Notes: a model not told the origin generated them from the letters alone. Positions 4,733 through 18,053 are shown, counted from the stretch's first letter. The stretch: 24,897 bases of DNA from a virus (IMGVR_UViG_2547132278_000021:1-24897); one strand, 5' to 3'. Numbers and translations: made by a program.

Positions 4733-5725
4733 TTACACCACGCGGGCTTCTGTTTCCAGAAGCGCATCAGTTTCACGGATTGGTACACCACGGAATGAAG
4801 TCCACCACTCGCCTTCTGTCTCTTTTACGCTGATCGCCAGAGATGTTTTCTCCAGAGATTGCAGATCAAGAGCCTGTCCTACAGTGCGGTTCATGTAGAA
4901 CACTGGGCGCCCCATGCCACGGTTTGGAATGCGATGCAGTGCTTTAACCATCAACTTCGCAATATTTGCGGCAGAGGAAGGTTCTGAAAGATTGCTGACA
5001 TCGATGTTTGCAATGCGAACGACATAACGCCAGTCACGCAGAGCAAGTCCGTTATCCCATTTGTAATGGGTACGGTAGCCTTCGTACTTGCCGCCATTAG
5101 CATCTTCCAGTGTCACCTGGCCTTTATCTTCCATCTGAATGCCAGCCTTCTGCCCTTTCGGGAAGATGCCATGCACGGTGTTTTCGCCCCACACCACTAA
5201 CCAGATTGAGGTGTTATCTGTACCCGTGCCACCAGCATCAATGATGTTCTGAGCATTACCCGCAGACAGGCTGGAATAGCGGGATGACAGTCCCATAAAC
5301 TGCTGAGGGTTAACGCTGGAATCACCATAAAACAGCGTCTGCGCCATCTGCTGATTCATCGCTTCAATAAATGCGCGGTCTTCAGACAGGCGGAATTCGG
5401 CGGTATTGCCGTTCAGATCAGCCAGTGACTTATCGACTTCAGCATAGGTTTCCAGCATGCCAACGGAATCGGTTACCTGCACTGTGGTTGATTTGCTTGG
5501 CTGTACTCCATAGTTCAGCAAACGCCAGGTAGCTGAAGGTAAACCAGAACGAATGGTGGTTCGGTGTCCGGTAGGAAGGTTCCCTTCGACAAAAGGCATA
5601 TCCTGAAGGATCGGGTTAGTTTGACCGAGAAGCTCGATAATCTTATCGACTTTCCCGTTTGGATCGACGCGCTTACCCCAGTCAGCCAGCGTTAGCGCAG
5701 TTAAGCCTTTAACAGCCATTGTCAT
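4733..5725 (-). CDS. Major capsid protein (330 aa; start may be the second ATG at 5719)
   Basis: ~36-kDa ORF directly after an acidic scaffold-like gene, in the canonical portal-scaffold-capsid order. GAGAGG Shine-Dalgarno upstream is better spaced for ATG 5719. Confidence 0.7.
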   Translation of the reverse strand: MTMAVKGLTALTLADWGKRVDPNGKVDKIIELLGQTNPILQDMPFVEGNLPTGHRTTIRSGLPSATWRLLNYGVQPSKSTTVQVTDSVGMLETYAEVDKSLADLNGNTAEFRLSEDRAFIEAMNQQMAQTLFYGDSSVNPQQFMGLSSRYSSLSAGNAQNIIDAGGTGTDNTSIWLVVWGENTVHGIFPKGQKAGIQMEDKGQVTLEDANGGKYEGYRTHYKWDNGLALRDWRYVVRIANIDVSNLSEPSSAANIAKLMVKALHRIPNRGMGRPVFYMNRTVGQALDLQSLEKTSLAISVKETEGEWWTSFRGVPIRETDALLETEARVV

Positions 5726-9052: not shown

Positions 9053-9129
9053 GTGGCATTAGCTCAGTTGGACAGAGCAACCGCCTTCTAAGCGGTTGGT
9101 CGCAGGTTCGAATCCTGCATGCCACGCCA
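9053..9129 (+). tRNA. tRNA-Arg (anticodon TCT, decodes AGA)
   Basis: 77-nt cloverleaf folded by hand: acceptor GTGGCAT/ATGCCAC, D stem GCTC/GAGC, anticodon stem ACCGC/GCGGT with loop CTTCTAA (U33, TCT, A37), T arm GCAGG-TTCGAAT-CCTGC, discriminator G, encoded CCA. Confidence 0.9.
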
Positions 9130-13557: not shown

Positions 13558-13821
13558 TTAACCCGCAGTGCTTTCAACTGATGAGGGGAACAAAATCTTT
13601 TCATCAAACCCTGCATTCATATCATGAACAGCAACACACCAATCCACCGACGAACGATTATCAAGAGCCTCCATGATTTCATCCATGCGGCGTAGGTCAT
13701 ACAGGTAAATGTTTTTATCGCCAATGGTGTAAAAGCCAATTTTTTTCGGTGATGGACAGCGATCAATGACGTCCTGTAATTCGTTCAACCATGCCTGTTC
13801 TTTTTTTGTCAAAGTTGCCAT
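13558..13821 (-). CDS. Hypothetical protein (87 aa from internal ATG 13821)
   Basis: ATG 13821 preceded by AAGGAAAA; track start 13911 would overlap the upstream gene. Confidence 0.45.
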   Translation of the reverse strand: MATLTKKEQAWLNELQDVIDRCPSPKKIGFYTIGDKNIYLYDLRRMDEIMEALDNRSSVDWCVAVHDMNAGFDEKILFPSSVESTAG

Positions 13822-13822
13822 A

Positions 13823-14041
13823 TCAGTTTTCCTTATACGGATTAATTTTATTGTGCAGTGTGTTGAACGGGGCCCATACAACGTCGTTATACAATTCAAT
13901 AACGGGCTCAATTACTTTTCCGATTATCCAGGCCAGTAATAGCGGGGATATCGGTATCATCAACACGATAAACAGAATGAGAAACAAAAATTCTGTCGCT
14001 CTACTTTTTCGCGGATATTCTTTTCTGAATAATGTAGTCAT
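13823..14041 (-). CDS. Small membrane protein (72 aa, one predicted transmembrane helix)
   Basis: Basic N-terminus then hydrophobic FLFLILFIVLMIPISPLLLAWIIG. Locally AT-rich by eye, and preceded by a 143-bp AT-rich gap containing palindromes. Confidence 0.5.
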   Translation of the reverse strand: MTTLFRKEYPRKSRATEFLFLILFIVLMIPISPLLLAWIIGKVIEPVIELYNDVVWAPFNTLHNKINPYKEN

Positions 14042-14125
14042 TTCTTACCGCCCTTTCGGACGGTCTCCTGATGTTCTGAGGGTGCAGGAATCCCTCCGGT
14101 TAAGGATTAAATTTTATTTACAGAA

Positions 14126-14152
14126 CTGAATTTAATTATTCAGATATACGTA
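14126..14152. promoter_or_regulatory. Palindrome-rich AT-rich intergenic region upstream of the small membrane protein gene
   Basis: CTGAAT-TTAATT-ATTCAG inverted repeat (14126-14143) and ATACGTAT (14145-14152). Confidence 0.3.
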
Positions 14153-14184
14153 TCTGTAACCTTACGAACCTACTCACTGGATGC

Positions 14185-14658
14185 CTATTTCATAAAAATA
14201 ATCCAGTGGGTTTTATCGTTTTTTCCTGTTCGTTGACCGATAACAGGCTTTCTGTCGGTCAGTGCCAATATTTGGCGAACAGGTATTTGCGTTTCATTCC
14301 ATTTAAAAATCAGAACGCCGTATGGCCACAACACACGAAAGGCTTCTTTAAATCCCTGCCGCAAATCATCACGCCAGGTATCTTTATTCATCCGTCCATA
14401 TTTCTTTCTCATCCAGGCGTTATCACCAACACGTTCAAGATGCGGAGGGTCGAATACAACAACCGGAAACGATGCGTCTGCAAATGGTAATGCACGAAAA
14501 TCTGCTATCAGGTCAGGGCTAATTATCAGCCGTCGTCCATCACATAATGTGTGCTCTTCCTTTCTGATATCGCTAAATATCGCCCGGTCGTCATTCTTAT
14601 CGAACCAGAACATGCGACTGCCACAGCACATGTCGAGGATTGTTGCATGTCCAGTCAC
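14185..14658 (-). CDS. Small phage Dam-like N6-adenine DNA methyltransferase (157 aa)
   Basis: SAM-binding motif I-like ILDMCCGS near the N-terminus and catalytic DPPH (DPPY-type) motif in VVVFDPPHL. GTG start at 14658 overlaps the upstream TGA. Confidence 0.6.
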   Translation of the reverse strand: MTGHATILDMCCGSRMFWFDKNDDRAIFSDIRKEEHTLCDGRRLIISPDLIADFRALPFADASFPVVVFDPPHLERVGDNAWMRKKYGRMNKDTWRDDLRQGFKEAFRVLWPYGVLIFKWNETQIPVRQILALTDRKPVIGQRTGKNDKTHWIIFMK

Positions 14659-15188: not shown

Positions 15189-15249
15189 CTTTACCCTCGC
15201 TTATCCACATAACTTATTGATTACATTGATAACTAAAAAGATCGTCGAT

Positions 15250-15594: not shown

Positions 15595-15597
15595 GAT

Positions 15598-15674
15598 TTA
15601 CCTCTAAGGTAATTAAAAACCACATAAGACACGAAATCAATAGATCTAAGAATATTTTGTTACCTATCAGGTAA
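15598..15674 (-). promoter_or_regulatory. Internal promoter-operator cassette: operators TTACC-TCTAA-GGTAA (15598-15612) and GTTACC-TATCA-GGTAAC (15659-15675) flanking -10 TTTAAT (15612-15617) and -35 TTGATT (15635-15640)
   Basis: Two perfect dyads 62 bp apart centre to centre, the same spacing and layout as the pL-like cassette; 17-bp spacer between the hexamers. Confidence 0.6.
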
Positions 15675-15686
15675 CTATTGAGGCGT

Positions 15687-15706
15687 AAAAAAATGCGCTA
15701 TCGCGC
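15687..15706 (-). terminator. Weak terminator-like element after the P-like gene
   Basis: Minus-strand GCGC-GATA-GCGC hairpin followed by TTTTTTT; only a 4-bp stem. Confidence 0.3.
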
Positions 15707-15711
15707 TGGTA

Positions 15712-16512
15712 TTACTTGATAAATCCTGCCGCCTTTCCCCGCCTGTATTCCTCCATCAGCCACTGCGCCGGTGTTATTCCCCCAAGGGTGGCGGCGTTAG
15801 GCATGCACCCGAAACTTCGCCCTGGTGGATGGTAAACGTCTCTCCCTGTGTCCGGAGGTGTACTCATGGGCTCTGGCTTTGCCTGTATGCTGATCACCGG
15901 ATCGGGTATCTGCTGTCCGGAAGCCACCTTTTTCGCCCAATCATCGAGCAGCCTGCGCGCGTGTTTCTCAACCTCAATCTCGCTAAGCTGGCGCTGATAC
16001 ATTGCACGGCGGGTATCACATACGACCCAGTACATAACCGGATGTCGCCACGGGAATCTTTCGGGACCACCAGGATATAAACTTTTTTCCTTGCTGTACC
16101 GGTGAAACTCCGCCATCACATCGTCAATGGTGACGCCAAGAACCATCTTGCTGTCTTTGCACCACTTGATAAATTGCCCTGGCGACGGCCAGAACGGAGA
16201 TTCACTGGCGCGGGCGTGGCGCATACCAGCAGAAACCTGTTCACGGGTTCGGATCCCCCCTTCGGCAAACGCAGCAATCCACTGCTGTTTTGCAGCAACT
16301 TCCTGCTCTGGCGTCTTCAGGTTGGTTACCACTGCCGCCGGAAACAGTTGTTTCAACTGTTTGAAAAGGGCATCAACAAGCCTCTCTGCTGACATGTTCA
16401 CCACATTGTCATTGTTGACGTACTGATGCTCATAACCTGACATGCGAGAAAGGGCTTCTCCGTCACGGTTTTGTATCGCGGTAAAAACGTTGTTCACAAG
16501 AAATCCTCCCAC
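15712..16512 (-). CDS. Lambda P-like replication protein (helicase loader), 266 aa; start codon uncertain
   Basis: QWIAAFAEGGIRTREQVSAGMRHARASESPFWPSPGQFIKWCK parallels the lambda P core (QWVLAFRENGITTMEQVNAGMRVARRQNRPFLPSPGQFVAWCR, recalled from memory). Track start is a GTG overlapping the O-like gene 3' end. Confidence 0.8.
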   Translation of the reverse strand: MGGFLVNNVFTAIQNRDGEALSRMSGYEHQYVNNDNVVNMSAERLVDALFKQLKQLFPAAVVTNLKTPEQEVAAKQQWIAAFAEGGIRTREQVSAGMRHARASESPFWPSPGQFIKWCKDSKMVLGVTIDDVMAEFHRYSKEKSLYPGGPERFPWRHPVMYWVVCDTRRAMYQRQLSEIEVEKHARRLLDDWAKKVASGQQIPDPVISIQAKPEPMSTPPDTGRDVYHPPGRSFGCMPNAATLGGITPAQWLMEEYRRGKAAGFIK

Positions 16513-17357
16513 GCTTCAGGGCTGTTCCAGTGCGGAACGTTGTTATCAGGTAATGTTGATTGCTTCTGTCTGCTAATCTGCAGCCGCCTTGCCAGCTTCT
16601 GCTCCCACTGTGCCTGATGGTATGCCTTACCCTCAGCCATCCAGTAAATTCTGAACTCTGCAAGTTCCTGTGCCGTTGGCAGACTGTCCAGGTAGATTCC
16701 CTGCAATGAGCTTTTCCGAAGAAAGTCATCTGATGGCTGCCATTGTTCATGCATGACAAATTTGCCTAATTGCCCTGGCCCACCAGGAGGAACAAAGTTA
16801 TTCATCACGGCGTTGTTTGCGCCGGGGTCATGAGGCACAGAATCCCCGGTTTTTGTCCTGCTCTCCCTCTCTTGGTTAAATGACTGGTTATATGACTGGT
16901 TCTGGATCCCGTTTTTGGGATCATTCAACATCCCGTTTTTGGGATCATTCAACATCCCGTTTTTGGGATCATTCAACATCCCGTTTTTGGGATCATTCAA
17001 CATCCCGTTTTTGGGTATATTCCCGTTTTCGGGAACATTACCGTTTTCGGGTTCATTACCCCCTTCCCGGTTGCCTTTAATGTTCCCTTTTTTGGTTATA
17101 TTAAGAGAGAAAACCCGTACTCTTTTCGTCGCCCCCTTTCTCTCTCCGGTATCTGAAATAAGCCCCATTTTCATGAGCGATATAAGCCCGGCCTGCACGG
17201 TTTTTTTATTCAGGCAAGTGTCTTTAACGAGGCGTTCTATGCTGGGGTAGCAGAGGTTATATTCATCGGCTCTGTCAGCCATCGAGAGCAGTATGAGCTT
17301 TAATGACGAGCTACCTGGATCTGTCTCCCAGGCCCAATCTGTTGCATGTCTGCTCAT
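16494..17357 (-). CDS. Lambda O-like replication initiator (287 aa) with internal origin repeats
   Basis: N-terminal winged-helix-like region (LKLILLSMADRADEYNLCYPSIERLVKDTCLNKKTVQAGLISL), central PKNGMLND repeats encoded by the iterons, and a C-terminal domain. GGAGA Shine-Dalgarno before ATG 17357. Confidence 0.8.
   Translation of the reverse strand: MSRHATDWAWETDPGSSSLKLILLSMADRADEYNLCYPSIERLVKDTCLNKKTVQAGLISLMKMGLISDTGERKGATKRVRVFSLNITKKGNIKGNREGGNEPENGNVPENGNIPKNGMLNDPKNGMLNDPKNGMLNDPKNGMLNDPKNGIQNQSYNQSFNQERESRTKTGDSVPHDPGANNAVMNNFVPPGGPGQLGKFVMHEQWQPSDDFLRKSSLQGIYLDSLPTAQELAEFRIYWMAEGKAYHQAQWEQKLARRLQISRQKQSTLPDNNVPHWNSPEAWEDFL
16906..17001. repeat. Candidate replication origin iterons: four perfect 24-bp direct repeats (ATCCCGTTTTTGGGATCATTCAAC), with degenerate copies to ~17060
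   Basis: Seen directly in sequence. Each unit carries an ATCCC...GGGAT dyad. Location inside the initiator gene mirrors lambda ori. Confidence 0.75.
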
Positions 17358-17678: not shown

Positions 17679-17700
17679 GAAAAGACCGCCGGATGGCGGT
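17679..17700 (-). terminator. Intrinsic terminator after the Cro/CII-like gene (tR1-like position)
   Basis: Perfect 7-bp stem GACCGCC / GGCGGTC with loop, followed on the minus strand by TTTTC. Confidence 0.5.
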
Positions 17701-17723
17701 CTACAGAGGTTTGTGGCTGGATA

Positions 17724-17954
17724 TCATGAGTAGAAGAAGTATGCCAGTTCTGCTTTTGAGCGCAGCCATTGTCTTGTTTTACAGGCTTTAAAAAGCCCAT
17801 TCATCAATACCTTACCTGGCATTTTGCGCTTACCTGTTAAGTGAGTCTGGATATAGTGACTCGTCGTTCCGGCTTCCTGTGCGAAGGCTTCACGCTCATC
17901 CGGAGTAAGTGCAAGCCAGTGCTTTTTGAAATCGAAATGTCCGTTATCGCTCAT
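17724..17954 (-). CDS. Cro/CII-like HTH regulator (76 aa), first gene of the early-right operon
   Basis: Divergent from the repressor gene. Helix-turn-helix-like stretch EAFAQEAGTTSHYIQTHLTGKRKMP; FDF...AFAQ resembles CII-type regulators of 186-like phages (from memory). Confidence 0.55.
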   Translation of the reverse strand: MSDNGHFDFKKHWLALTPDEREAFAQEAGTTSHYIQTHLTGKRKMPGKVLMNGLFKACKTRQWLRSKAELAYFFYS

Positions 17955-17990
17955 AGCTATTGCCTGATATTTATTTCAGATAATAAATAT

Positions 17991-18053
17991 TCACCCATAA
18001 GGTAACAAAAATCAAGGATAGTTACCTATGAGGTGCATTTACCTGTTGGGTAA
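17991..18053. promoter_or_regulatory. Immunity-region operator cluster (OR-like): TCACC-CATAA-GGTAA (17991-18005), TTACC-TATGA-GGTGC (18022-18036), TTACC-TGTTG-GGTAA (18039-18053)
   Basis: Three dyads in the 154-bp divergent intergenic region between the cro-like and repressor genes. Candidate cro promoter hexamers TTGTTA/TATTAT overlap the first site. Confidence 0.65.

Follow-up and report, generated by a model that had tools for sequence, protein, structure and literature searches.

On the minus strand between positions 13823 and 14184 of IMGVR_UViG_2547132278_000021—a 24,897-nucleotide stretch of viral DNA, the whole of which we call the window—lie a gene for a 72-amino-acid (aa) protein (13823..14041) and, upstream of it, an intergenic gap (14042..14184) that parts it from a methyltransferase gene. 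An earlier note on this DNA had described the open reading frame (ORF) and had read it as a candidate 'moron', an AT-rich cargo gene for a small membrane protein with an upstream region of its own. The ORF is as described, opening with an ATG, and the gap measures exactly the 143 bp given for it. The reading is another matter. To judge from its family matches, the 72-codon ORF is a real, ordinary accessory gene of the already known DUF4014 family (PHROG 1832), and the part of the gap nearest to it, ~100 nt (14042..14143, minus strand), is a junction cassette that runs from a block of stop codons in three frames to the start codon and is conserved across loci whose flanks differ. What is new is confined to this upstream cassette; the gene itself is one more copy of DUF4014.

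Pfam, PHROG, family alignments, hydropathy and AlphaFold were all brought to bear on the gene. The ORF matches Pfam DUF4014 (PF13198) from end to end, residues 1-72 falling on profile positions 1-72 of 72, and scores 93.5 bits where 23.2 is the cut-off (E 1e-26); it matches PHROG 1832 (phrog_1832) over positions 1-72 of 72 as well (E 7.7e-45). Its homologs are 72-aa proteins of Escherichia coli and Salmonella phages and prophages, among them 933W L0067, VT2-Sakai, ArgO145, ES18 gp39, g341c gp23, epsilon34, HK225 (HK225_057) and epsilon15 gp46. Behind gp46 in epsilon15 come a DUF551 protein, a small protein and a regulator, and after these the end of the genome, where the terminase genes lie; the ORF in the window occupies the same relative position. 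Full-length match, length, the motifs LMxPxSP and W..F..LHNKxNPY, and early-region placement are thus what it shares with other members of the family. The difference is that the cassette precedes the gene in this locus and in roughly one of every eight, whereas elsewhere the gene abuts the previous one. The family's sequence space is tiny: 11 clusters (50% identity) at E <= 1e-10 among 1.84 billion representative proteins, and an exhaustive HMMER search of the same proteins found no distant relatives tying DUF4014 to a characterized family. Free-standing HNH endonuclease genes adjoin the DUF4014 gene in three unrelated phages, ArgO145 (L002), HK225 (L006) and g341c (L008).

The protein was expected to be small and to cross the membrane once, and this expectation holds. 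Kyte-Doolittle hydropathy over 19 residues reaches its maximum, 2.9, at residues 18-36, the single strongly hydrophobic stretch, and an AlphaFold model built with 22 family members (mean pLDDT 84) predicts two helices, 14-28 and 31-66, kinked at P30. Since five of residues 1-14 are Arg or Lys, the positive-inside rule would keep the N-terminus in the cytoplasm, and the protein is probably a single-pass inner-membrane protein oriented N-in/C-out. The family keeps LMxPxSP within the membrane helix and W..F..LHNKxNPY(K/R)E in the C-terminal tail; L27, M28, P30, P33, W38, E45, E49, Y51, W56, F59, H63, N64, K65, N67, P68, Y69 and E71 are invariant, and are common to epsilon15, HK225 and g341c.

Two database names have become attached to this family, and our literature search found neither a paper that mentions DUF4014 nor usable evidence for the names. 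The search turned up no source for the PHROG 1832 label 'released from the phage upon host infection', and an early-region membrane protein would be an unlikely component of the virion. The other name, 'acetyltransferase inhibitor' or 'O-polysaccharide acetyltransferase inhibitor', we traced to an old name for epsilon15 gp46 that is quoted in the g341c record and was copied onto some E. coli proteins. Taken at face value it would mean that the protein binds a host membrane enzyme, the O-antigen acetyltransferase, by analogy with small phage peptides that block the O-antigen polymerase. A small membrane protein is a suitable molecule for such a task, and two converting phages, epsilon15 and g341c, do have a homolog. 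In the epsilon15 record as it now stands, however, the depositors call gp46 a 'hypothetical protein', DUF4014 is widespread among Stx, P22-like and HK225-type phages, and placement in the early operon argues against expression in the lysogen. We know of no Stx, P22-like or HK225-type phage that removes O-acetyl groups, and we regard inhibition of this kind as very unlikely.

Most unlikely of all, in our estimation, is that the protein damages membranes, whether as a type I toxin or as a holin- or antiholin-like factor that times lysis. It is small, with one hydrophobic helix and charged ends, and hok loci lie a few kb away in related prophages; against this, its 72 aa include a long conserved extramembrane helix and tail. 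Type I toxins are generally about 60 aa or fewer, with their own promoter and an overlapping antisense RNA, and here we find no antisense or own promoter-like site and no terminator. No Pfam family other than DUF4014 (Hok/Gef and holin families included) matches the ORF, nor does any holin PHROG, PADLOC or NCBIfam profile, and Rfam reveals no Sok. The earlier note had itself regarded a holin role as unsupported for want of an adjacent endolysin, and we agree: the neighbors are the methyltransferase, phrog_1714, DUF551 and NinX genes, and lysis genes are not among them.

The result of use concerns the cassette. Read in the direction of the gene, it opens with CTGAATAATTAA (14132..14143), which has a stop codon in each of the three frames; elsewhere, most copies have an upstream gene that terminates within CTGAATAATTAA itself (...T/P-E-stop). 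AATCCTTAACCGGAGGGATT comes next and holds the first of two GGAGG motifs, the Shine-Dalgarno-like GGAGGG at 14092..14097. This motif has no start codon behind it here, and it can pair with CCCTC at 14078-14082, after which comes a 5-nt variable patch; in truncated copies of the cassette elsewhere, it serves as a real ribosome-binding site. The second Shine-Dalgarno-like motif, AGGAG (14065..14069), stands directly 5' of a stable hairpin, ACCGUCC-GAAA-GGGCGGU (14047..14064), the 3' arm of which, GGCGGU, is itself Shine-Dalgarno-like. The hairpin ends 5 nt before the ATG; this spacer is A-rich, and it measures 5-9 nt in other copies. The cassette occurs once in the window.

Outside the window, it occurs very often. 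When 111 nt of it were compared by blastn with 5426 complete E. coli genomes, matches were found at 5023 places in 2694 of them, up to nine in a single genome. About half of complete E. coli genomes therefore carry it, and none of the records inspected annotates it: beneath the matches, the annotation is either 'none' or the end of a hypothetical protein. Its two halves are also found apart in these genomes. Among sequenced phages the cassette is present in 21 records only, all Escherichia-type, including Rac-like phages in which it is positioned after the replication genes and a DUF977 gene. A degenerate search for the hairpin in one genome for each of 185,579 species gave real matches only in E. 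coli, Shigella and Citrobacter (C. braakii). One of the loci we collected, L007 (PP818812.1, 'Actinobacillus phage vB_Apl-pPE4'), has E. coli-type early genes 93-97% identical to those of the window, including the cassette, the DUF4014 gene and a hok gene; its stated Actinobacillus host looks doubtful.

What surrounds the cassette varies. In 94 copies from viral contigs, it is followed by genes of at least seven unrelated families, DUF7167 being the most frequent and DUF4014 (16 of the 94) the second, and it is preceded by genes of at least eight, the upstream and downstream families being combined combinatorially. When the locus is aligned with three others, ~100 nt (14042-14143) are kept while both neighbors change: the upstream gene is a methyltransferase or Ea22-like gene, and downstream there is the DUF4014 gene, a gene for a protein of 138 aa or an ORF of 36 aa. 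Some relatives have the methyltransferase gene and the cassette in common with the window, others the cassette and the DUF4014 gene; the two sets overlap in the cassette only. On these alignments the arrangement in the window is recombinant, and the gap sequence is a portable junction cassette placed between many unrelated prophage gene pairs rather than a private control region. The methyltransferase gene, too, accompanies the cassette ahead of other genes elsewhere (loci L003 and L004).

A conserved sequence at the joints of interchangeable genes is, by definition, a module linker or boundary sequence. Linker sequences are said to figure in the modular theory of phage evolution put forward by Botstein in 1980, and boundary sequences have been discussed for HK620 and HK97. 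The cassette resembles such linkers in being a conserved non-coding joint with unrelated genes in combinatorial flanks, and the crossover is visible in the window; it differs from them in being longer and more elaborate, with three-frame stops and translation signals. Joints of a related kind may lie within genes. Unrelated genes behind the cassette or behind DUF4014 share near-identical N-termini—MTELTKE, MATLTKK, MAELTKW, MTTITRE and MTITTKE (loci L014-L178 and L225-L304)—which suggests that mosaic joints also fall inside the first codons of genes.

Can the gene nevertheless be a moron? Morons in HK97 and HK022 were reportedly described by Juhala et al. in 2000 as a promoter, a gene and a terminator set between conserved genes and expressed from the prophage. 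Our locus is like them in consisting of an extra, dispensable gene, lower in GC than core genes, in a variable region. On composition, the picture is mixed. The GC content of 13823-14184 is indeed low, 0.392 against 0.496 for the window, which places it among the lowest 1% of equal-sized windows, and the GC minimum of the window begins at 13798. The overall GC of the ORF is 0.379, but its GC at third codon positions (GC3), 0.452, resembles that of the neighboring accessory genes (0.39-0.46). The AT-richness noticed earlier thus seems to be a property of the accessory block as a whole (~12.3-14.6 kb), and the Phe/Ile/Leu-rich membrane segment probably adds to it inside the ORF. In the closest phage, Escherichia phage phiv142-3, everything that lies between the DUF1064 gene and the regulator is a different gene set; since the block is swapped whole, the region is a hypervariable accessory block and not a single-gene insertion site, and the ORF is non-core cargo within it.

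The signals that would give such a gene its autonomy are also missing. Consensus scans of both strands found no sigma-70-like promoter and no intrinsic-terminator-like site in or beside 13823-14184. By the same scans alone, 88 of the 94 cassette copies have no promoter-like site on the sense strand and all 94 have none on the antisense strand, with no conserved position; of the six sense-strand matches, five are within the gene that follows the cassette and the sixth precedes the cassette core. The hairpin at 14047-14064 lacks the geometry of an intrinsic terminator, being followed by AAGAAAUG, and the antisense strand gives CUCCUGAUG. Beyond the 3' end of the DUF4014 gene there is no hairpin with a T-run; the next gene simply starts 1 nt past the stop codon.

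That downstream joint, AAGGAAAACTGATATG (13819..13834, minus strand), is a conserved structure in its own right. The last codons of DUF4014, AAG GAA AAC TGA, carry the ribosome-binding site of the following gene, which in the window is a phrog_1714 gene for 87 aa (13558..13821, minus strand; PHROG match), the most frequent gene behind DUF4014 (51 of 84 loci). Among 80 loci on viral contigs that encode close relatives of the DUF4014 protein, the next ORF starts 1 nt past the DUF4014 stop in 78, and this junction is common to at least nine unrelated downstream gene families. Because the joint embeds the ribosome-binding site of the next gene across so many families, conservation of the C-terminal YKEN may in part be a constraint on nucleotides rather than on the protein. 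The joint reads AAGGAAAACTGA(T/A)ATG in loci L225-L304.

The upstream side was said to be unlike the tightly coupled genes around it, and here the verdict is divided. A gap of 143 bp does lie upstream, but the 3' side is coupled and the early operon has other gaps, of 61 and 117 bp. The cassette is missing upstream of DUF4014 in 70 of the 80 loci, and 66 of those 70 have a preceding ORF that stops 1 or 32 nt short of the DUF4014 start; in annotated phages, DUF4014 genes are packed equally close to the ORFs that precede them. The two other gaps, at 15595-15711 (117 bp) and 15189-15249 (61 bp), flank the DUF1064 gene, and phiv142-3 has gaps of like size (117 and 61 bp) at the matching positions.

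Taken together, the lack of promoter- or terminator-like sites, the 1-nt coupling, the 70 cassette-less loci and the generic nature of the cassette leave the autonomous moron unsupported, at least on the sequence signals, the downstream coupling and the question of single-gene insertion; nor can the upstream region be called the gene's own when at least seven unrelated families share it. A true moron would require that the cassette hold a non-consensus or activator-dependent promoter, and that the protein be made from the repressed prophage, to serve either lysogenic conversion or the exclusion of superinfecting phages. The low regional GC and the AT-richness of the cassette's 5' half would suit this, as would a gap that is atypical for the DUF4014 family and a small membrane product of the sort that known exclusion proteins are. 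Set against these are the scans just described, the coupling of the next gene, the many non-membrane genes that stand behind the cassette, the position of most DUF4014 members in early operons with no cassette at all, and the lack of a PADLOC match to the ORF. Compared with the lambdoid morons, then, the differences are that the locus has no promoter- or terminator-like signals, that it is oriented with the early operon and coupled to the next gene, and that whole blocks are exchanged. We consider a moron unlikely; neither 'moron' nor 'holin' nor 'acetyltransferase inhibitor' is a fit annotation for the gene.

The explanation that we favor, and think probable, is that the DUF4014 gene is ordinary early-operon cargo preceded by a portable cassette that is both a junction where modules recombine and a start signal for translation. 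Distribution, combinatorial flanks and the recombinant window are established; the role in translation we infer from geometry only. The gene appears to have no promoter of its own, and would be read within the long minus-strand early transcript from a PR-like promoter near 17980-18008. On that transcript the three-frame stops would end translation of whatever gene lies upstream, and the strong AGGAG, the stable 18-nt GAAA-loop hairpin, the 5-9 A-rich nt and the AUG would then provide a self-contained start for whatever gene arrives downstream. The conserved sequence of the cassette would, in addition, supply the homology for module exchange. The DUF4014 protein itself might be made early after infection or induction and inserted N-in/C-out; with low confidence, we suppose that its kinked membrane helix and its conserved outer helix and tail (LHNKxNPY) would bind a protein of the host envelope. 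Exclusion, surface modification and toxicity are each, taken individually, unlikely functions for it.

There is a precedent for the proposed start. In T4 genes 25 and 38, according to Nivinskas et al. 1999 and earlier work, a hairpin between the Shine-Dalgarno motif and the AUG reportedly draws the two together. Every copy of the cassette appears to have the corresponding parts—AGGAG, an 18-nt hairpin, 5-9 nt and a start—and the motif, from which ~23 nt of sequence separate the start, would be adjacent to it if the hairpin forms, which would bring them to a working distance. The differences are that the 3' arm of the cassette hairpin is itself Shine-Dalgarno-like, that there is an extra upstream GGAGG together with an anti-Shine-Dalgarno CCCUC, and that the cassette is mobile across many genes.

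The hairpin is the one robust structure in the gap, present in both the minimum-free-energy and the centroid fold, whereas two weaker helices of 4-5 bp are missing from the centroid of the whole gap. The consensus fold favors the sense strand (-17.9 vs -8.4 for the antisense), and it pairs UCCU with AGGA and GAGGG with CCCUC. The hairpin stem is retained in 52 distinct variants, few changes breaking the pairing; changes in its 5' arm are mostly C-to-U and preserve U.G pairing, which they do on no strand but the sense strand (15 of the 52), and one compensatory A-U pair is found. Across the alignment 97.8% of the cells pair, chiefly on account of invariant columns.

Several observations weigh against the start-signal proposal. 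The gap as a whole folds with unexceptional energy (z = -1.4 for both strands; 18-21 of 200 shuffled sequences fold equally well), and the 'palindromes' reported earlier, which do exist as several short inverted repeats, come down to the single GC hairpin where robust structure is concerned. The predicted fold pairs both GGAGG motifs, and would by that pairing repress initiation rather than promote it. A covariation test of the three helices was null, with one compensatory pair and every measure equal to that of shuffles, and loops are no more variable than stems; invariant loops agree better with recognition of the sequence itself, or with recent spread, than with a role in structure alone. 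Consensus scans could miss a non-canonical or activator-dependent promoter, and nothing links the DUF4014 protein to a partner. The confinement of matches to E. coli, Shigella and Citrobacter means that there are no divergent copies from which covariation could be drawn, and the RNA structure is best described as compatible with the sequences, without covariation to support it.

Repression might, of course, be the point. The cassette could be a translational operator in whose folded form the GGCGGU arm and the two GGAGG motifs are concealed; a CsrA-like or phage-encoded RNA-binding protein, or a small RNA, would open or close it and so time DUF4014 and the other downstream genes post-transcriptionally. 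The predicted pairings just described are what such an operator would need, two GGA motifs lie ~28 nt apart, the invariant loops suggest sequence-specific recognition, and the cassette is conserved above the level of synonymous sites. However, covariation is null, the two weaker helices are short and drop out of the whole-gap centroid, Rfam offers no match, and no candidate regulator was identified. We find an operator rather unlikely.

The other possibility is that the cassette does nothing: that it is a relic of a 5' untranslated sequence which frequent homologous recombination among the resident Rac-like prophages of E. coli has spread and homogenized, and that it only hitchhikes in the window. 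Its narrow host range, both among the 185,579 species genomes and among the 21 Escherichia-type phage records, is what such a history would leave behind, as is high identity without covariation, and so is the separate occurrence of the two halves. Less easily reconciled with a relic are the geometry, which stays constant up to the start codon with seven different genes, the wobble-biased substitutions in the hairpin, and the diversity of the cassette: at 0.05 it lies below what the adjacent genes show at third codon positions (0.10 and 0.19), although above the value for the first and second positions of DUF7167. A functionless cassette is a possibility that we entertain with considerable doubt. 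We are equally tentative about the most ambitious form of our own proposal, in which the cassette is an unrecognized and very common portable 5' leader, at once translational insulator, start signal—possibly controlled by an RNA-binding factor—and homology patch.

Much would follow from these alternatives. If the cassette both sets translation and guides recombination, it would help explain how accessory regions are shuffled without loss of expression, and it would be a ready-made natural 'insulator plus ribosome-binding site' part. As a portable leader, it would be a concrete, countable example of the 'linker' sequences that the modular theory postulates. And even if it proves to be merely a homogenized relic, it still marks mosaic joints and helps to annotate them.

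A number of known elements were considered as identities for the cassette and set aside. With Rfam 15, only a tRNA in the window reaches the gathering score, and nothing relevant appears at E <= 10 in 13700-14400. The prophage small RNAs AgvB, AsxR, Esr41, STnc100 and Pas are, like the cassette, conserved non-coding sequences of lambdoid E. coli prophages, but each of them either has an Rfam entry or is located next to Q and lysis genes, whereas the cassette has no Rfam match even at E = 10 and no promoter- or terminator-like signal for a discrete RNA; a sequence search of the supplements of Tree et al. did not find it either. The RfaH ops element (GGCGGTAG..TG) comes close in that many cassette copies show GGCGGTAG after the hairpin, but the window has GGCGGTAAG instead, there is no T and G further downstream, and variation starts directly after GGCGGT. 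GCCC-GAAA-GGGC resembles a lambda-type boxB, but it has a tetraloop, there is no convincing boxA, and it lies deep in the operon, before start codons, which is no place for a nut site. The consensus for integration host factor (IHF) is fitted only by a minority variant, ATCAAATCCTTA. Nor is a leader peptide likely to be encoded: the sole in-frame start is a CTG that is lost in some variants, and variation clusters in the 5-nt patch rather than at third positions.

The remaining inverted repeats in and around the gap are quickly listed. An 'AT-only' repeat, CTGAAT-AATTAA-ATTCAG (14126..14143), which contains CTGAATAATTAA, is nested in TTACAGA/TCTGTAA (14153-14159 / 14118-14124), and an inverted-repeat search also gave CAGATA..TATCTG at 14141-14156. 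An 11-nt repeat with arms at 14172-14182 and 14201-14211 (14172..14211), 91% complementary, spans the methyltransferase stop codon; it is present in methyltransferase-bearing relatives, and is outside the widespread cassette. The 'AT-only' and the 11-nt repeat are placed on the minus strand.

The window as a whole belongs to a temperate phage of the phiV10/epsilon15-like kind, genus Uetakevirus. Over 87% of the window there is a match to phiv142-3 with 96.8% identity; further matches are to TL-2011b, phiV10 and phages related to them. Between ~9.8 and 18 kb, every phage gene is on the minus strand, in the order cro-like, O-like and P-like replication genes, DUF1064, phrog_492, methyltransferase, the gap and the 72-aa ORF, followed by phrog_1714, DUF551, NinX-like and regulator genes and then the small and large terminase genes. 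The methyltransferase gene (14185..14658) encodes a small orphan class I S-adenosylmethionine-dependent DNA methyltransferase (phrog_954; MTase_II and oMTase in PADLOC). The cro-like gene (17724-17954) has a cI-like gene opposite, on the plus strand; ahead of it a promoter scan places the PR-like promoter (17980-18008, minus strand), and directly 3' of it, in a tR1-like position, is a terminator-like GC-rich hairpin with a T-run (17683-17702, minus strand). These two are the only strong early signals on the minus strand, and from their arrangement it follows that reading of the accessory block may require an antitermination system.

Two last features of the window deserve mention. Iteron-like origin repeats at 16906-17060, consisting of a perfect 24-bp repeat in 4.6 copies and then an 18-bp repeat in 3.1 copies, sit within the O-like initiator gene (16494-17357, minus strand), where they encode a protein repeat, NDPKNGML. 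And a tRNA-Arg gene (anticodon tct) lies at 9053-9129 between the terminase and head genes, on the plus strand, opposite to the phage genes.

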